Of a stretch of DNA of 64,000 nucleotides, positions 8,168-19,100 are shown piece after piece; the stretch's first letter is position 1, and each line of letters begins with the position of its first letter. Under the pieces are notes generated by a model. That model saw only the letters and a list, made by a program, of their open reading frames with translations, was not told the origin of the DNA and searched no databases. The position numbers were made by a program, and so were the translations under genes. The DNA lies in assembly GCF_044324875.1 (NCBI RefSeq), contig NZ_CP172187.1; one strand, 5' to 3'. Source of the DNA: Escherichia coli (lineage in GTDB: Bacteria; Pseudomonadota; Gammaproteobacteria; Enterobacterales; Enterobacteriaceae).

Positions 8168-8526
8168 TGACGGAGACGGGCGGGCAACCGCCCGTTTCTT
8201 TTCCGACAAAGGATGTCGCCGTGCTCCTCTTTTTACTGCGCCGGCTGACGCGGCGCGGCATAAACGCTGCCTGTGGTCAGTGTCCCGCGTCCGGCGGGCA
8301 CGGGACGGGCGCTTTTACCGCTCCCGGCTGGCACCGGTGACAGTGTACGCCAGCCCGTCGCCCTTTTCTGATGAACGCCCTTCAAGCCGCTTTCGCGGCA
8401 TAGCCTTGCCGTCAAAAAGACGACGGCTGCGGTATTCCACGGTCGGCCTGACCCGTTACCGGACGCGGTGAACAGCCCACAGGCAGCGGGGAACGGGCAC
8501 CACAGGGGTGCCCTCCCGGTGCCTTC
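8168..8526 (+). repeat. leading-region repeat family A, copy 2
   Basis: Near-identical to 6863-7221; ends at RBS of the methyltransferase gene. Confidence 0.85.
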
Positions 8527-8546
8527 TGTAAGAGAAGGAGGCTTTT

Positions 8547-9230
8547 ATGTCCCGTTTTATCCTGGGTGACTGCGTGCGAGTTATGGCCACGTTTCCGGAC
8601 AATGCTGTCGATTTCATCCTCACCGACCCGCCGTATCTCGTCGGTTTCCGTGACCGTTCCGGGCGCACCATTGCCGGTGACGTTAACGATGACTGGTTGC
8701 AACCTGCCAGCAATGAGATGTACCGCGTACTCAAAAAAGACGCTCTGTTGGTCAGCTTCTACGGCTGGAACCGTATTGACCGCTTTATGGCGGCCTGGAA
8801 ACGCGCCGGATTCAGCGTGGCAGGGCACCTCGTGTTCACCAAAAACTACACATCCAAATCTGCGTATGTCGCGTACCGCCACGAATGCGCCTACATCCTG
8901 GCAAAAGGCCGTCCACGTCTGCCACAAAACCCGCTGCCGGACGTGCTGGGCTGGAAATATTCGGGCAATCGTCATCACCCGACGGAAAAGCCTGTTACCA
9001 GCCTGCAACCGCTGATTGAGAGCTTCACACACCCGAACGCAATTGTGCTGGACCCGTTTGCAGGCAGCGGCTCAACCTGCGTTGCCGCCCTCCAGTCCGG
9101 ACGCCGGTATATCGGTATCGAGCTGCTTGAGCAGTATCACCGTGCCGGACAGCAACGACTGGCTGCCGTTCAACGGGCCATGCAGCAGGGGGCCGCGAAT
9201 GATGACTGGTTTATGCCGGAGGCTGCGTAA
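8547..9230 (+). CDS. orphan N6-adenine DNA methyltransferase (DPPY motif before FAGSGS motif; beta-class order)
   Basis: 227 aa; LTDPPY and DPFAGSGSTC motifs; AGGAGG RBS; no adjacent restriction endonuclease. Confidence 0.8.
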   Translation: MSRFILGDCVRVMATFPDNAVDFILTDPPYLVGFRDRSGRTIAGDVNDDWLQPASNEMYRVLKKDALLVSFYGWNRIDRFMAAWKRAGFSVAGHLVFTKNYTSKSAYVAYRHECAYILAKGRPRLPQNPLPDVLGWKYSGNRHHPTEKPVTSLQPLIESFTHPNAIVLDPFAGSGSTCVAALQSGRRYIGIELLEQYHRAGQQRLAAVQRAMQQGAANDDWFMPEAA

Positions 9231-10487: not shown

Positions 10488-10638
10488 TGACACTGGCGGG
10501 GTAAATCCCCGCCTTTTTCCTGCCGGTCCCCGGACAGAGCACAAAGGAAGTCGCCGCCGGCTCCGCTTTACCCGGCCATGCGGGGCATGGCCTTGTGGAT
10601 TTTCAGTTATGTGGCCTCAGCGTCGTGTGCGGGCTGTG

Positions 10639-10858
10639 CCGTGCCTCCATCGTAGCCGGGCTTCTGCGGGCGGGTTGCAAGGTAAGGTGAACCGCTGCGG
10701 TCACCCGGTCCCTCCTTCCCGTCTGCCGTGATTTTCCGGTCGTTCACCCGCTCAGATTTCGCGGTCTCACCCTCCAACTCCCGCCAGCCGTGTGCGTCAG
10801 GCTGCGGCTTCCCTTGCGCCCTTGCAACCCTGCAGGCCCGGCAAAGATGGAGGCACGG
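10639..10858 (+). promoter_or_regulatory. long inverted repeat (arms ~40 nt at 10639-10682 and 10820-10858) able to form a large hairpin in ssDNA; Frpo/ssi-like candidate
   Basis: Arms read directly (CCGTGCCTCCATCGTAGCCGGGCTTCTGCGGGCGGGTTGCAAGG vs reverse complement of CCTTGCAACCCTGCAGGCCCGGCAAAGATGGAGGCACGG); just upstream of the klcA-like gene. Confidence 0.6.
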
Positions 10859-10903
10859 CACCGCCCGGTGTCGCGGAATATGTGAACAACGGAGGAAAAC
10901 ATC

Positions 10904-11329
10904 ATGCAATATGCGAAACCTGTCACTCTGAATGTTGAAGAGTGCGACCGTCTGTTTTTTCTGCCTTACCTGTTTGGCCAGGATTTTCTGTATGCCGAGG
11001 CATCTGTGTACGCGCTGGCGAAAAAAATGATGCCGGAATATGACGGCGGATTCTGGCACTTCATCCGCCTGCCGGACGGTGGCGGTTACATGATGCCGGA
11101 TGGCGACCGTTTTCATCTGGTCAACGGTGAAAACTGGTTTGACCGTACGGTCAGCGCCGATGCCGCAGGCATCATTGTGACTTCCCTTGTGATTAACCGT
11201 CAGTTGTGGCTGTACCACGACAGCGGTGATGCAGGACTGACTCACCTGTACAGGATGCGCGATGCGCAGTTGTGGAGCCACATCGAATTTCACCCCGAAT
11301 GCAATGCGATTTACGCGGCACTGGACTGA
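10904..11329 (+). CDS. klcA: KlcA/ArdB-family antirestriction-like protein
   Basis: 141 aa; GGAGG RBS; size and sequence character match KlcA/ArdB family from memory; followed by GGCGGCAATGCCGCC hairpin. Confidence 0.6.
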
Positions 11330-11986: not shown

Positions 11987-12178
11987 TACAGGGGCAGGCG
12001 GTGGAGGCCGCCTGTCAGCCCGCGCGAAAACCCCTGGCAGGCTGACGCCTGCCGGAAGGGAAGCGGGCCACGCTGGCGCGTCGCCCGTTACCCTTCCCGT
12101 CTGTGATGTGTCTGACTCAGGAGTGTTTCTTTCTTATGTTGCGGAACTGTTCCTGATGTTGTTGTTGTTCCTTTATCT

Positions 12179-12788
12179 GCTGCTCTGATTCTGACTACTG
12201 CAGTGTTGTTCTGTCTGCCGGGCGCACCTTCGGCTCCCGGCTGCCTGGCGGCATCCGGTCGTCAGGCCCGACTCCGACAGGCAGCTGCTGGCGCACCTGC
12301 CAGTCTCCGCCGAACCCGCTGGCGCGGCTTCGGGCTGCCGCTACGGTCCGATGCGTGAAAACCCCGGGCTTGCAGCGACCGTTCTGGTCGCGCCGCCTCT
12401 GTCGCGCCGTGGCCTGCGCTCCAGGCATCCCGGCAAAAAGACGCCGGGATGTAAGGCGCAACGCCGTTTCGCAAACCGCGCTTCACGTCGTTGCTGCGGG
12501 TCCCTGCTCATTGCCTGCCGGGTGCCACACACCCGTATGAGTCCCTGTCGCCGGGGGCATAGACAGCCACAACCTGCCGCACTGACTGTCCAGGGTAAAT
12601 GAACAGCCCACAAAATTTTTTACCCAAAACCCGGTAAAAAATTTTGCGTTCTGCCCAGGACAGGTGCGTCAGGCCGTGGCAGTGATGCCCCTTGCGGCGA
12701 AGGTTCTCAAACGGGTGAAGTTCATACCACAGGGAATACAGCAGCAGGTTCCCGCGAAACGTCAAAACCGCGGCTCCCGAAACTCAAC
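12179..12788 (+). repeat. leading-region repeat family B, copy 1 (~610 bp, GC-rich, internal palindromes); Frpo/ssi-like
   Basis: Three near-identical direct copies (12179-12788, 15536-16167, 23600-24229); contains hairpins such as CATCCCGGC-AAAAAGAC-GCCGGGATG. Confidence 0.85.
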
Positions 12789-13027
12789 GGGTGATGTTCT
12801 TTAAAAATCAGGATTTATTTCAGGCTCCGGCAATACGCATTTATGTGTTCTGTCAGTCATCCGGCTGGCAGGTAATGAGAACGCAGGAACAGAAGGAGGA
12901 AAACACCGGAGAACGTCAGACGCAGATATGAAAAAAGCAGGCCGGGGAGGACCTGCTTAATCCACACCGCAAAAACTGTTCGAGCAGTTTCTGCGGTTCC
13001 ATTCAACAGTCATAAGGAGTTTCATTT

Positions 13028-13258
13028 ATGACGGTAAGTATTGTTTCACCTTCCGCAGCGGCTGTAAAGCCCCGCCGTCATCCCCGTTTCAGACGCGAAG
13101 ACATCCCCGCGCCGGAAATTGACCCCGTGCTGAAAGCCTTCGGGCGACACATAGCCCGGAGTTTTCACCGGGGGCGTGGTGTACACATCCCCGCCATGAA
13201 AAACACGGCCTTCGGGCAGGTGCTCCGCACACTCGAACTGAAACGCGCTTTTAACTGA
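13028..13258 (+). CDS. hypothetical basic small protein (76 aa)
   Basis: AAGGAG RBS; first ORF after repeat B1. Confidence 0.45.
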   Translation: MTVSIVSPSAAAVKPRRHPRFRREDIPAPEIDPVLKAFGRHIARSFHRGRGVHIPAMKNTAFGQVLRTLELKRAFN

Positions 13259-13309
13259 TGAGGTGAGCCGCCCCGCGAGGGGCGGCAACAGATGGAAGGA
13301 GAACATTTT

Positions 13310-14671
13310 ATGACATTAGCAGCAATCACCATGACCGCCCCGGAAGCCGCCAACCCTGTGCAGATGTACCGCGCGACCTACTCACCGGATGACAACAAAC
13401 TGCGCCTGTATGCCGCGTCACGTCTTGACCCGGAGACGTATAAAAAAGTGCATGATGCCGGTTTTCGCTGGGCACCCAAACAGGCGCTGTTTGTCGCGCC
13501 AGCCTGGACACCGGGCCGGGAAGACGTGCTCCTCTCACTTGCCGGAGAGATTGAGGATGAAGACAGCACGCTCGCTGAACGTCAGGAAGCACGGGCGGAG
13601 CGGTTTACCGGATACAGCGGAAAGCGGGCCAGTGAATCCGCACAGGCACTTGATGAAGTGGAAAGACTGGCCGCGATGATCCCGCCCGGTCAGCCCATTC
13701 TTGTGGGGCATCACAGCGAACGCCGCGCCCGTCGTGATGCGCAGCGTATTGAAAACGGCATGAAACGTGCCGTGATGCTCTTTGAGCGTGCGGAATACTG
13801 GGAGGAGCGGGCGCGGTCGGCACTGCTTCACGCGAAGTATAAAGAACGCCCGGACGTTCGCTGGCGTCGTATCAAAAAAATCGAAGCGGATTTGCGCAAG
13901 GCTGAAAAGACCATCGCGCAGTCGCAGAAATATCTGACGATGTGGCGGGCTGAATCGCTGGATCTGAATATGGCAAAACTCATCAGCAGTCATGACCATA
14001 TCAGCGCCTGTTTCCCGCTGGACAGGTATCCGCGCCCGGCAGAAAAAAGCCAGTATGAAGGAAGTCGATCGTTATGGTCGGCCCTGGATGATGACATCAT
14101 CACCACGGAGCAGGCCCGCGAAATTGCGATCCGCTGTCATGAACGGCAGATTCAGCATCAACAACGCTGGGTTAACCACTATCATAACCGCCTGATCTAT
14201 GAGCGTGCCATGCTGGACGAAAGCGGCGGCGTGGTTACCCGGACACAGGATTTTGAGCCGGGCGGACAGGTTTTCAGCCGGGGCGAGTGGCTGACCATCA
14301 TCCGCGTGAACAAAAGCAACGGGGCGGTGAGTTCAGTCACAACGCCGAATTACAGTTTTCTCGGGTACAGCGGCACGATGAAAGTGACACCCGATCGCAT
14401 CACGGACTACAAAGCACCATCGGCAGAAGAGGCTGCCGTCGCCAGTCAGGCCGCGAAGCGTCCGCCGGTAGTCAACTATCCGGGGGAAGGTTTCCGGGAA
14501 ATGACAAAGGCGCAGTGGGCCGCCCTGCCCCGGGACTGTAAGGCCGTGCGCAGTGTGGCAGAGACAGAAGACCACGGGGCATACCGCTACCGCCGCACAA
14601 TGGACAATAATTTCCGCCTGGTGAATGTGTATATCACTGACATGAAAATCACGGAAATCCCACAGAAATAA
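13310..14671 (+). CDS. hypothetical leading-region protein (453 aa, coiled-coil-rich middle)
   Basis: Start at ATG after GGAAGGAGA RBS (MTLAAITMTAP...); no family recognised. Confidence 0.7.
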   Translation: MTLAAITMTAPEAANPVQMYRATYSPDDNKLRLYAASRLDPETYKKVHDAGFRWAPKQALFVAPAWTPGREDVLLSLAGEIEDEDSTLAERQEARAERFTGYSGKRASESAQALDEVERLAAMIPPGQPILVGHHSERRARRDAQRIENGMKRAVMLFERAEYWEERARSALLHAKYKERPDVRWRRIKKIEADLRKAEKTIAQSQKYLTMWRAESLDLNMAKLISSHDHISACFPLDRYPRPAEKSQYEGSRSLWSALDDDIITTEQAREIAIRCHERQIQHQQRWVNHYHNRLIYERAMLDESGGVVTRTQDFEPGGQVFSRGEWLTIIRVNKSNGAVSSVTTPNYSFLGYSGTMKVTPDRITDYKAPSAEEAAVASQAAKRPPVVNYPGEGFREMTKAQWAALPRDCKAVRSVAETEDHGAYRYRRTMDNNFRLVNVYITDMKITEIPQK

Positions 14672-14717: not shown

Positions 14718-15281
14718 ATGCACAGTCAGTTAAGAGAACGTATCCGGCTGATGCGCGCAAGGCTGGATAACGCCGCGCCGGTTGCTGAAATCCGGGCTGA
14801 ATCTCAGCTTTTTGTGACTCCTGCCCCGGTCTGTGATCGCCTGGTGACGCTGGCGGAAATCAGCAACCGTGATCACATTCTGGAACCCTCTGCCGGCACC
14901 GGGGCCATACTGCTGGCGATTCGGGATACCGCGCCGGAGGCCATGTGTGATGCGGTGGAGATTAACAGCGGGCTGGTCCGGTATCTGCGGGAAAATTTTA
15001 ACGGTGTCAGGGTACAGTGTGGCGACTTCATGGAATGGCAGCCGGTGCAGTATTACAGCCGGATCATTATGAATCCGCCGTTCAGTCACGGGCAGGATAT
15101 CCGGCATATCCTGCGGGCTTTTTCCCTGTTGCGTCCGGGGGGCGTTCTGGTTGCCGTCTGTCTCAACGGGCCGCGCCAGCAGGAGAAGCTGTTACCGTTT
15201 TCTGACGTCCGCGAGGAGCTGCCGCGCGGCACGTTTGCTTATACCGATGTCCCGACGATGATTATTCGTTTGCGTGCCTGA
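14718..15281 (+). CDS. small SAM-dependent methyltransferase-like protein (motif I EPSAGTGAI, motif IV NPPF), no obvious target-recognition domain
   Basis: 187 aa; N6-adenine MTase-type motifs read in the ORF; GGAGA RBS. Confidence 0.7.
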   Translation: MHSQLRERIRLMRARLDNAAPVAEIRAESQLFVTPAPVCDRLVTLAEISNRDHILEPSAGTGAILLAIRDTAPEAMCDAVEINSGLVRYLRENFNGVRVQCGDFMEWQPVQYYSRIIMNPPFSHGQDIRHILRAFSLLRPGGVLVAVCLNGPRQQEKLLPFSDVREELPRGTFAYTDVPTMIIRLRA

Positions 15282-15460
15282 TGACACAGGGCTGGCGGGA
15301 GGATAAATGCCCGTCTGTCCGCGCCGGGAAAAGACCGCGCGCCGGTGGCGCTGAAAGGGGCCGCGCTCACGCGCCGCCCCTTTCATTACGCGGACGTTCT
15401 GATGGGGGCTTCTGTCTTTTCAGACCTGTCATTTGTCTGTTACTGATGATGTTGTTGTTC

Positions 15461-15525
15461 CTGCTACTGCTACTGCTACTGCTACTGCTACTGCTACTGC
15501 TACTGCTACTGCTACTGCTACTGCT
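15461..15525. repeat. hexanucleotide tandem repeat (CTGCTA)n, ~11 copies
   Basis: Read directly; absent at the equivalent position of repeat copies B1 and B3. Confidence 0.9.
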
Positions 15526-15535
15526 CTTCTTTTTC

Positions 15536-16167
15536 CTGCTGCTCTGATTCTGACTACTGCAGTGTTGTTCTGTCTGCCGGGCGCACCTTCGGCTCCCGGC
15601 TGCCTGGCGGCATCCGGTCGTCAGGCCCGACTCCGACAGGCAGCTGCTGGCGCACCTGCCAGTCTCCGCCGAACCCGCTGGCGCGGTTTCGGGCTGCCGC
15701 TACGGTCCGATGCGTGAAAACCCGGCTTGCAGCGACCGTTCCGGTCGCGCCGCCCCTGTCGCGCCGTGACCTGCGCTCCAGGCATCCCGGCAAAAAGACG
15801 CCGGGATGTAAGGCGCAACGCCGTTTCGCAAACCGCGCTTCACGTCGTTGCGGCGGGTCCCTGCCCGTTGTTGTGTCCGGTGCCATTCACCTGTTTAAGC
15901 CCCTGTCGCCGGGGGCTGATACAGCCACAACCTGCCGCACTGACTGTCCAGGGTAAATGAACAGCCCACAAAATTTTTTACCCAAAACCCGGTAAAAAAT
16001 TTTGCGTTCTGCCCAGGACAGGTGCGTCAGGCCGTGGCAGTGATGCCCCATGCGGCGAAGGTTCTCAAACAGGTGATGGTGAATACCGGAGGGAACAAAG
16101 AGCAGGTCCCCGCAAAACGTCAAAACCGCGGCTCCCGAAACTCAACAGATGATGGGGGCTGAAAACA
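15536..16167 (+). repeat. leading-region repeat family B, copy 2 (immediately upstream of ssb)
   Basis: Near-identical to copies at 12179 and 23600. Confidence 0.85.
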
Positions 16168-16187
16168 TCAACAGAAGGAGACACATC

Positions 16188-19100
16188 ATGGCAGTTCGTG
16201 GCATTAACAAGGTCATTCTTGTCGGTGTGCGCCGTTGAAGCGCGGTGTTTTATGGAGTGTTGCCTGAAAAGCAACATGGCTTAGTGGTATAGCCATTGCA
16301 TACTGTGGTTAGCCTTGCTTGGTAACAGGCTCGGAGATCCTGAAAAGGAGAGGTGAACATAGCATCCACAGAAAAGGGTGGTGAATATGGAAATCGTTAT
16401 AAGTATCACCATTCAATGCAAGATGTATATGGATAAACTGGGTTTGTTGAAGTCGAGATCTATGTGGGAAACAGGAAACCAATAACGCAGAACGATTGAA
16501 GCGTTATTCCCGTACTAGCACAAGAAATCCGTCCGACGTTGATTGTGACCACTCTAACGGGCCAGCTATTGATGAAATAGTTAAACGATCGAAAGACATC
16601 CTAAGTACATCGCATCTCCACACCGTGAAACTACGGGACTACCTAAACTGGATTTATACCCAGCATGGTAGCGGAGTCTCCATAGTACTCAAGGTCGGCC
16701 TGTAATGGGTTCCGGCAGTCCGCATTATACGGAAGCAGCAAAGGTATAAATCAACCGGAAGGAAGATGAAAGCCTCACAGTGCTGCGGGGAAGGGAGACA
16801 GTTGTTAGATACATCAATCTCTAAGAGGAGGGTTAGCCAATGCTGCCTGATGAACTTGAGAAAAGATTAGATGGAATTGAGGATGCTTCAAAAAAAGGGT
16901 ATCCAGTACGTAATCTATACAAAATTGCGTGTGAGCCCGGACTGTGGCTGCAAGCCTACGTGAATATACGGGCCAATGCAGGTGCACTGACTCAAGGTGT
17001 ATCAACAGATACCATTGATGGCTTTTCTATCGAAAGAGCAGAGAAGCTGGCAAAAACATTGCGGAGTAGAGAATACGTAGCGAAACCTGTACGCAGAGTT
17101 CAGATCCCAAAAAAGGACGGAAAAACCAGACCGCTGGGGATTCCAGGTGGAGACGATAAACTGGCGCAAGAAGTAGCAAGAATTATTCTGGAAAGGGTTT
17201 ATGAACCAGTATTCTCTGAACACTCTCATGGATTCAGACCAAAACGTTCGTGTGAAACTGCGCTCAGATCTATTCGTCCAGTCTGGAACGGAGTTAAATG
17301 GATCGTGGATGTTGATATCAAAGGTTTCTTTGACAATATCCCCCACAAACTATTGCTGAATACACTGGCAGAGAAAATTAAGGATAAGAATTTCCTGAAA
17401 TTAATCGAACAGTGGCTGAAGGCAGGATATGTGGACAATTGGAAATACCATCGCTCATATTCTGGCACGCCACAAGGTGGGATAATTTCTCCCTTACTGG
17501 CAAATATATACCTCGACAAACTGGACCGTTTTGTAGAACAGAATTTAATTCCTGCATATACAAGCGGTACAAAACGAAGAGCGAATCCAGATATGAACAG
17601 GCTGGCCCATAAGATTCATAAACTACGAAAGAAAGTAGACGGTATGGCAACTGATTCTGAATCAGAAAAAGAAGCCATAAAGAAAGAAATTGAACGACTG
17701 CTTGAAGAAAAACGTTCTATACCATCTCAGGTCATGAACGATCCAAACTTCAGGCGTATGTACTATGTTCGATATGCTGATGACTTCGTAATCGGTGTCA
17801 TCGGCTCGAAGAAAGATGCTGAACATATATCAAGACAGGTCAGAAACTTTATTACTACTTCACTGGGATTGGAAGTTAATGAAGCAAAGACCAGGATCCG
17901 CCATATCTCAGAAGGAGTTAATTTTTTAGGCTATGAAATCAGACAGGCAGATGCAAAGAAATTGCTGAAGCAGAAAATGCAAGGGCGGCACGCTCTCCGG
18001 AGATCCACCACAGGAATTGTGCAGCTCTTCGTTCCTGACAATATAGCCGCTAAATTTTGTCACCAAAAGAAATATGGCTGTTATGAGAATGTGAAGGCTG
18101 TACATCGTTCAAGTCTACAAAATCTCAGTGAAGCTGAAATTGTTCTGACTTTCAACGCGGAAATGCGCGGATTGGCGAACTACTACAGTCTGGCGCTGGA
18201 CATGAAATATAAATTATCAAAATTATATTTCATATGGCAAATAAGCCTTTTTAAGACCCTGGCGAATAAACGACGTAGTTCAGTGAATAAAGTCGCCAAA
18301 TCGCTACGGCAAAATAATGGAGATCTGGCTATTACCGTTCAGGCCAAAAATGGATCCCGAAAGATTGAGGTTTTCAAACTCAAACATGTCAATCGCAACC
18401 GAACAACGATTGTCGATACGGAACCGAGAACCGCACATATCACAACCCGCACAACAGAGATCATGCGTCGATTAGGGGCAAGGATCTGCGAGTATTGTGC
18501 GAAGACTGGGCGCTGCGAAGTACATCATGTCAGAAAGCTAAAAGACCTGAAGAAAGGTCGTAAGGCCGGATATAAACCCAGCTTGTGGCAACTAATGATG
18601 ATCGCACGCCGCCGGAAAACGATGATTTTGTGCGCAAGTTGCCACGACAAGTTACATAGCGGAAAACTACCCGATTTGAGACAGGAAAAGGGAAGAATAC
18701 TCCTGCAACCACCTGTCTCAAGCGGGGATTCTGCTAAATGAGTTTATCCCCAATAAGCTAGCAATGGAGAGCCGTATGCACTGAAAGGTGCACGTACGGT
18801 TCGGAGGGGGGGTAACGGTGATCTAACTCAAGATAAGCAGGACATATTCGCCATTTATCTTGAAAGACCACACGTACCCTACCCTACCGTCTGGGAAAAG
18901 ATCCGGAAGTCCGTTACATCCCAAACGGGGGCGCAGTGGCAAACCTGCAGGTGGCCACGTCAGAAAGCTGGCGCGACAAACAGACGGGGGAGATACGGGA
19001 GCAGACAGAATGGCATCGCGTGGTGCTGTTCGGCAAGCTCGCGGAAGTGGCTGGTGAGTATCTGCGCAAGGGCGCGCAGGTCTACATCGAAGGTCAGCTT

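Follow-up and report, generated by a model that had tools for sequence, protein, structure and literature searches.

What is the role of a G+C-rich, palindromic repeat that stands three times, always in the same orientation and always at the head of a block of genes, in a single stretch of bacterial DNA? The question is raised by 64,000 nucleotides (nt) of Escherichia coli contig NZ_CP172187.1, hereafter the window, in which a first-pass annotation had likened such a repeat to the Frpo/ssi elements that drive early ssb and psiB expression in F-like plasmids. We conclude, with a probability of about 0.92, that each copy is a class-1 single-stranded DNA (ssDNA) promoter of the Frpo/ssi (ssp1) family, made up of the published element of about 328 nt and a conserved, structured tail. 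The element as such is already known, under the names Frpo1/Frpo2, ssi1-3 and ssp1, from thousands of plasmids.

Three direct repeats in the leading region of an IncF plasmid

The repeat unit, composed of tail, hairpin and short leader, lies on the minus strand at 12168-12796 (copy A, limited by blastn and alignments), 15527-16166 (copy B, blastn) and 23590-24229 (copy C, blastn). When each copy was compared with the window by blastn, A and B were 93.5% identical over 631 nt, A and C 93.6% over 629 nt, and B and C 98.3% over 641 nt, all with E = 0. Repeat search and alignment agree with blastn on three direct copies, whose limits are slightly wider than those first noted (12179-12788, 15536-16167 and 23600-24229). 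Their earlier description as near-identical suits B and C; it does not suit A, the outlier of the three, whose differences are mainly in the lower stem. A 31-nt core occurs exactly three times, against zero expected by chance, and the G+C content of the repeats is 61-62%, against 52.0% for the window. The palindrome AAAATTTTTTACC...GGTAAAAAATTTT, picked out at the start as conserved, is indeed invariant in all three copies (12612-12645, 15970-16003 and 24033-24066). It is the apex, or centre, of a much bigger imperfect palindrome, each copy aligning with its own reverse complement at about 68% identity over 204-286 nt (blastn).

The first-pass annotation was also right in placing every copy ahead of a gene block on the plus strand. 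Copy A ends 231 nt ahead of the open reading frame (ORF) that starts at 13028, copy B 21 nt ahead of the ssb ATG at 16188, and copy C 20 nt ahead of the ATG at 24250.

It had further proposed a comparison with published Frpo sequences, and those of Samuel et al. 2024 (PMC11541004, Suppl. 4 and 11) match all three copies. The whole of the ssiD sequence of F (= Frpo, D90178, 351 nt) aligns with the minus strand of copy B at 87.0% identity (16158-15809), of copy C at 86.8% (24221-23872) and of copy A at 80.3% (12785-12452). The Frpo2-acrIIA4 construct, which is functional in vivo, is 97.6% identical to copy B at 15901-16190, and the ssi repeats of ColIb-P9 are 78-80% identical to the window copies at the apex. 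All three copies are thus homologous in sequence to class 1 (ssp1). Position and orientation agree as well: in F (NC_002483), Frpo2 stands ahead of ssb and Frpo1 ahead of ygeA/ygeB, the positions of copies B and C, which are accordingly the homologues of F Frpo2 (ssp1b) and, by position, of F Frpo1/ssiD (ssp1a). No sigma-70 consensus promoter was found inside any copy, on either strand, by an in silico consensus scan, in line with the lack of a conventional duplex promoter in class 1.

The promoter and priming activity that we ascribe to the window copies is taken by analogy from published, near-identical sequences (PMC9849209, PMC11541004, PMC12672017). When Frpo1 or Frpo2 is deleted, transconjugants no longer produce YgeA and Ssb/YfjA early on (PMC9849209). 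An anti-CRISPR gene driven by Frpo is active only from the leading transferred strand, being dependent on both strand and position, and the Frpo2-acrIIA4 construct rescued conjugation from Cas9; the same study counted 13,089 Frpo homologues across 6,006 conjugative elements (PMC11541004). Induction of leading genes reaches about 500-fold, and start sites have been mapped in transconjugants by RNA-seq and 5' rapid amplification of cDNA ends (PMC12672017).

The window is the leading region of an IncF plasmid. For the 5.1 kb that run from copy A to copy B, the best match is the IncF plasmid NZ_OX637966 (98.3% identical), from which gene names were transferred and whose leading region has the order DNA methylase, antirestriction (klcA-like), 76-aa ORF, DUF3560, methyltransferase, ssb, DUF905, ParB-like, psiB, hok/sok, 95-aa ORF, DUF932, SLT gene, traM and traJ. 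At the place of psiA that record carries no annotation; the window has an ORF at this position (22172-22891), where related plasmids annotate psiA. The same 5.1-kb stretch matched at least 5000 plasmid records, mostly conjugative plasmids of Escherichia, Klebsiella, Salmonella and Shigella, and 2487 among the matches listed cover at least 80% of it. Rfam identifies FinP and the traJ 5' untranslated region (5' UTR) at 27181-27290 and sok at 22997-23173. By motif match, an origin of transfer (oriT) nic site of the R100/R1 type, GTAGTGTGTGGTGCTTT, lies on the minus strand at 26383-26367, with traM, traJ and FinP downstream.

In F, the nicked strand enters the recipient 5'-first. Because the nic motif is on the minus strand, the coordinates below it are leading region and, given 5'-first entry, the minus strand is the transferred strand and the template of the plus-strand genes. 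Copy C is 2.1 kb from nic, copy B 10.2 kb and copy A 13.6 kb. All three therefore lie in the leading region, and the transferred strand is the one that both folds, as described below, and templates the genes downstream.

A long hairpin on the transferred strand

DNA folding of copy B (646 nt) yields -190.7 kcal/mol (z = -12.6) for the minus strand and -173.2 kcal/mol (z = -11.2) for the plus strand. With DNA parameters, a long imperfect hairpin is predicted on the minus strand of each copy: at 12466-12783 in copy A (318 nt, 122 pairs, dG -105.0 kcal/mol), at 15823-16141 in copy B (319 nt, 123 pairs, -105.8 kcal/mol) and at 23886-24204 in copy C (319 nt, 122 pairs, -106.5 kcal/mol). Their length of 318-319 nt is to be set against the 328 bp given for Frpo in a review (PMC7690428). 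In the hairpin of copy B, a conserved duplex is formed by CCCTGGACAG (15953-15944) and CTGTCCTGGG (16021-16012).

The hairpin differs between the strands in a consistent manner. On the transferred strand it is more stable than its complement by 8.6-16.1 kcal/mol in 12 of 12 homologues, a set drawn from the window, F, ColIb-P9, Serratia and an insect-gut element whose members are related and so do not amount to 12 independent trials. G-T pairs are commoner on the transferred strand in 11 of the 12, F Frpo2 having six on each strand. This asymmetry speaks for selection of the fold on the entering DNA strand and not in plus-sense RNA.

The same comparison bears on the possibility that the structure acts in RNA, as a 5' UTR, a processing site or a terminator. 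A plus-sense read-through mRNA would fold as well, as the values for the plus strand of copy B suggest, and the tail of the repeat directly follows upstream ORFs. However, the plus-sense fold is the less stable one in all 12 hairpins and in all 10 tails compared, and the G-T pairs that favour the minus strand in 11 hairpins would be C-A mismatches in plus-sense RNA. Moreover, the stems are not followed by a terminator-like T-run, and Rfam gave no match within the repeats at the gathering threshold, the only hit at E <= 1 being a chance miRNA match (E = 0.91). A function exerted in RNA is, in our view, highly improbable.

Conservation of the fold was examined by laying the pairing of copy B over an alignment of 11 homologues, down to about 68% identity. 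In this alignment 87.7% of cells were paired, against 39-43% when the pairing partners were slid by 1-3 columns, and 24 of 160 pairs had changed on both sides, against 9-10 in the slid controls; none of 500 column shuffles reached the observed value. Because the fold comes from a sequence that is itself in the alignment, the proportion of paired cells is biased upward, while the counts of pairs changed on both sides are less affected. Even in distant relatives the hairpin has been preserved through compensatory changes, as expected for an element of class 1 under selection. A pairwise test of compensation between copies A and B, on the copy B fold, is confounded by shifts of register at indels.

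The compensatory changes also speak to the alternative that the first-pass annotation had named as its refutation, namely that the repeats are functionless, degenerate remnants of an insertion sequence (IS), a miniature inverted-repeat transposable element (MITE) or a repetitive extragenic palindrome (REP). The repeats are, after all, repeated, palindromic and G+C-rich, and in some plasmids group II introns or IS26 are inserted in or beside them. Yet terminal inverted repeats are absent (best end-to-end score 9-10, against a shuffled mean of 13.1), as are flanking target duplications. The copies hold syntenic positions in at least 5000 plasmids, their hairpin is kept by compensation, and a function has been published for near-identical copies. 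This alternative is not supported, and we assign it a negligible probability.

From the entering strand to early expression

On the model that we propose, the minus strand would enter the recipient 5'-first from nic at about 26.37 kb, so that copy C would arrive after about 2.1 kb, copy B after 10.2 kb and copy A after 13.6 kb. While the strand is single, each copy is predicted to fold into its imperfect hairpin of about 319 nt. The hairpin would rebuild a duplex promoter for the host sigma-70 RNA polymerase with the assistance of SSB, as published for F and ColIb. Reading toward the 5' end of the incoming strand, which corresponds to the plus direction of the window, the polymerase would give an early burst of the block downstream. 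By analogy with the F homologues, copy B would drive ssb through psiB and psiA, and copy C the ygeA/ygeB homologues; copy A probably drives the 76-aa, DUF3560 and methyltransferase genes. The same RNA may also prime synthesis of the complementary strand, for which published work offers in vitro data and in vivo support. Once that strand is made, the hairpin would be lost and the promoter would fall silent, again following what is published.

Since the RNA may have two uses, it could be argued that the repeats are mainly priming signals (ssi) for complementary-strand synthesis, with downstream expression as a by-product. Indeed, ssiD was first isolated as a single-strand initiation signal, and Frpo RNA primes DNA synthesis in vitro (PMC7690428). 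In vivo, leading-region transcripts help to prime the complementary strand, and early conversion near psiA and ygeB is sensitive to rifampicin (bioRxiv 2026.01.09.698686). The tail, with its several hairpins and GNA triloops, could provide an additional loading site. Against priming as the main role, the copies stand in the correct orientation at the short distances from a start codon given above (20-21 nt for B and C, 231 nt for A), and Frpo deletions remove early protein production (PMC9849209). We regard it as unlikely that expression is a mere by-product. Priming and transcription use the same RNA, so that the two roles are not exclusive, and priming is better seen as a published second function than as a true alternative.

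Where within the hairpin the promoter would lie is a separate matter, on which we can offer only tentative assignments. Class 1 calls for -35 and -10 boxes that are rebuilt in the stem at a spacing of about 17 bp, with mispairs at the -10. The hexamer TGGACA is invariant and fully paired in the loop-distal arm (15950-15945 in copy B); an internal loop, with a poor match to a -10 element, lies 17-20 nt nearer the base. It is conceivable that the A/T-rich apex serves as an UP-like element, TGGACA as the -35 and the internal loop as a pre-melted -10, in which case RNA 5' ends would fall near 12690, 16050 and 24113. When hexamers were scored over 11 homologues, no -35/-10 position proved consistent and at the same time in keeping with the truncated construct that works. 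A Rho-loading site 5' of the repeats was considered and dropped: the tract there, though striking in F, is 66-69% pyrimidine in the window.

Four points weigh against the interpretation of the repeats as ssDNA promoters that drive the blocks downstream. First, the best-scoring hexamers, TTGACG-18-TTTGTT and TTGAGA-17-CATCAC (8/12), are on the other arm and would be unpaired in the truncated construct; because that construct works, the internal geometry of the promoter is uncertain. Second, chimeras of copies A and B with exchanged arms fold at -97.4 and -108.1 kcal/mol, against about -105 kcal/mol for the native hairpins, so that this comparison does not show co-adaptation of the arms. Third, a 2.7-kb intron stands between copy B and most of ssb, and early SSB output may be delayed or reduced. 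Finally, the block behind copy A is absent from F, and we found no published experiment that covers it.

The blocks themselves are as follows. Copy A is followed on the plus strand by a 76-aa ORF (13028-13258, from the ORF list), a DUF3560 protein gene (13292-14671) and a gene for a class I S-adenosylmethionine-dependent methyltransferase (14718-15281), the latter two named from NZ_OX637966 and the last with weak matches to methyltransferase families. The block ends at 15281, or at 15547 if an 88-aa ORF (15281-15547) is counted. Copy B is followed, from 16188 on the plus strand, by ssb, the DUF905 gene, the ParB-like gene, psiB and psiA, with names from NZ_OX637966 and related plasmids. Copy C is followed by a ygeA-like 95-aa ORF (24250-24537, plus) and a ygeB-like DUF932 ORF (24575-25477, plus).

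An interruption of ssb had escaped the first-pass annotation. About 85 nt downstream of the copy B hairpin, after codon 13, the gene is split by a sense-oriented group II intron (16227-18887, plus; 2661 nt, GTGCG...CTAC) with a reverse transcriptase ORF at 16840-18741 and Rfam Intron_gpII domains V/VI at 18767-18887. Exon 1 (16188-16226) and exon 2 (18888-19376), when joined, encode an intact SSB of 175 aa with the C-terminus DFDDDIPF. Early SSB would thus require 2.7 kb of additional transcription, as well as splicing. Further along the same block, the ParB-like gene (a yfjB homologue) appears as two overlapping plus-strand ORFs, 19729-20427 and 20406-21686, whereas NZ_OX637966 has a single coding sequence of 1959 nt. 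This points to a 1-nt frameshift, reflecting either a pseudogene or a sequencing error.

Two further features lie close to the repeats. The antisense RNA AS-pc01 (Rfam RF02875, 89.7 bits) is found at 12932-13033 on the minus strand. It has a sigma-70-like promoter of its own (13068 to 13040, TTTACA-17-AACAAT with TG) and, at 12958-12935, a terminator with a T-run. AS-pc01 overlaps both the ATG and the ribosome-binding site of the 13028 ORF, the first after copy A. Its template is the plus strand, present only after conversion to double-stranded DNA; AS-pc01 could therefore silence copy A mRNA left over after the ssDNA promoter has shut off. Just ahead of copy B, a (CTGCTA)n tandem repeat at 15461-15530 on the plus strand lies within the putative 88-aa gene at 15281-15547 and encodes about 25 C-terminal leucines. 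The corresponding ORF of NZ_OX637966 has 84 aa, and the number of repeats is apparently variable.

The conserved tail and the relatives of the repeats

The repeat unit measures about 630 nt and not 328, the excess being a tail of about 300 nt that lies 3' of the main hairpin on the transferred strand, beyond the published Frpo. It occupies, on the minus strand, 12168-12465 in copy A (E1 about 12168-12359, E2 about 12360-12465), 15527-15822 in copy B (E1 15527-15716, E2 15717-15822) and 23590-23885 in copy C (E1 and E2 together). On the transferred strand it folds into several short G+C-rich hairpins. E2 (about 106 nt) contains the hairpins CATCCCGGC/GCCGGGATG, GCGC...GCGC and GCGACCG-GAA-CGGTCGC, followed in copy B by the conserved GCTGCAAGC. 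The last of these hairpins and GCT-GCA-AGC are GNA triloop hairpins. E2 is present in every relative examined whose sequence reaches it, including L049 and L083 (about 68-70% identical) and the insect-gut element; the count leaves out the published 397-nt Serratia fragment, which ends just short of E2. E1, about 190 nt in the window, has at least two forms. The window form occurs in all three window copies and, at 97% identity, beside an IncI-type hairpin in an IncK plasmid; a shorter form occurs in both copies of F and in two copies of a Klebsiella plasmid.

The tail, too, is conserved and structured. Both parts fold better on the transferred strand than shuffled sequence does (z = -5.1 for E2 and -3.5 for E1), and the tail is more stable on that strand by 4.1-10.2 kcal/mol in 10 of 10 homologues. 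Helix 14, in E2, has 97.9% of cells paired and 4 of 12 pairs changed on both sides, with the variants GCGACC/GGTCGC, GCATCC/GGATGC and GTATTC/GAATGC; helix 12, also in E2, is 97.8% paired. A function for the tail is supported by the compensatory changes down to about 68% identity, the 10/10 strand bias and its exchange between IncF-type and IncI-type hairpins. It is tempting to propose that the tail is a functional ssDNA module in its own right, a possibility that we consider less likely than not. Speculatively, it might act as an insulator or roadblock that protects the promoter hairpin from being melted by RNA polymerase coming from upstream and by the advancing DNA polymerase, or as a separate loading site for primase or PriA.

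Annotation pipelines have suggested another role for the tail region, since PGAP calls minus-strand ORFs for hypothetical proteins over it in NZ_OX637966, in F and in the IncK plasmid. Long ORFs are expected in G+C-rich DNA. However, indels of 1 nt and 2 nt in the tail cause the ORFs to differ in frame and length between copies, giving 74 aa in A and C and 65 or 110 aa in B, and the ORFs are on the strand that is not template during entry. That the repeats encode small proteins is scarcely credible, less so than a function in RNA.

Some observations concern the tail in other plasmids. A scan of a genome collection with a 17-nt G+C-rich tail motif gave almost exclusively chance matches in high-GC genomes, the real loci being L049 and L083-L085. 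A lone tail in a Shigella plasmid (L125) is the product of truncation by IS26. In the Klebsiella pneumoniae plasmid pKPC2_130119 (L004, NZ_CP127230, about 17658-20001), and also in L084, a different group II intron is present in the tail of copy A; in L004 the insertion point is near position 55 of the tail, and ltrA runs on the opposite strand. Two unrelated group II introns are thus found in or beside these repeats in different plasmids.

The closest characterized relative is Frpo2 (ssp1b) of F, which is like copy B in its position ahead of ssb and in orientation and is 93.6% identical to it over E2, hairpin and leader. It differs in having the shorter E1 module, shared by both F copies, in a weaker predicted hairpin (-86.1, against about -105 kcal/mol) and in an uninterrupted ssb. 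The 76-aa/DUF3560/methyltransferase block between A and B is likewise missing from F, as is any counterpart of copy A. Frpo2 of F (NC_002483, L002 13171-13622) is a mosaic, resembling copy A at the base of the distal arm and copy B in the proximal arm. This is consistent with Frpo2 being a recombinant of copies A and B, the block between them having been deleted by recombination between the repeats; a comparable deletion has been proposed for an IncI plasmid (PMC3817090).

Copy C has the position of F Frpo1/ssiD, with equal hairpin size and the full-length identity of 86.8% given above, but it carries a Frpo2-type apex, unlike F Frpo1. The latter element, upstream of ygeA/ygeB, is said to have been described by Masai and Arai in 1997. 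Because copies B and C are 98.3% identical, against 92% between the two copies of F, gene conversion between B and C is suggested for this lineage.

More distant are ssi1-3 of ColIb-P9/IncI1, reportedly described by Bates in 1999 and Nasim in 2004, and R1-R3 of pO26-CRL125, which are likewise three dispersed direct repeats heading leading-region gene blocks. ColIb-P9/IncI1 has in common with the window the AT-rich apex and the CCCTGGAC duplex. The arms of the hairpin have diverged so far that only about 80-96 nt can be aligned, at 78-80%, the hairpins beside the main stem differ in sequence, and the backbone is MOBP/MPF_I as against MOBF. Three dispersed Frpo-type repeats per leading region had already been described for IncI plasmids (PMC3817090).

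The reading of a folded single strand by RNA polymerase has parallels outside conjugative plasmids, in the single-strand origins (sso) of rolling-circle plasmids and the early hairpin promoters of phage N4, the latter with assistance by SSB. The sso yields only a primer, and N4 uses its virion RNA polymerase and very small hairpins. We know of no sequence relation between either of them and the window repeats. The comparison of sso with Frpo has been drawn before (PMC7690428).

Class 2 (ssp2, before klcA/ardB) and class 3 (ssp3, before the methylase) of Wen et al. 2025 follow the same principle of a long transferred-strand hairpin, without sequence homology to class 1 (PMC12672017). Their positions are single-copy in the window, unlike the three class-1 copies, and two further minus-strand hairpins occupy them. 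The one at 10545-10905 (-91.4 kcal/mol, z = -4.3) precedes the klcA-like antirestriction gene and by eye resembles candidate Frpo' 4 of Samuel; the one at 8200-8550 (-98.1 kcal/mol, z = -5.1) precedes the DNA methylase gene. With these, the number of ssDNA promoters, or early transcription units, in the leading region may be five, three of them class 1. F ssiE (D90180, 190 nt) has its counterpart at 25591-25779 on the minus strand (97.9% identity), near oriT between the DUF932 and SLT genes.

For the window, the value of these results lies in correct annotation, that is, in three class-1 ssDNA promoters. Only the tail, conserved and structured but left out of published constructs and definitions, might add to what is known. 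As repeats, the elements explain rearrangements of the leading region, such as the deletion seen in F. As promoters, they time the first minutes of plasmid establishment, namely SOS suppression, SSB supply and anti-restriction, and their relevance to the spread of resistance plasmids is already recognised and under experimental study.

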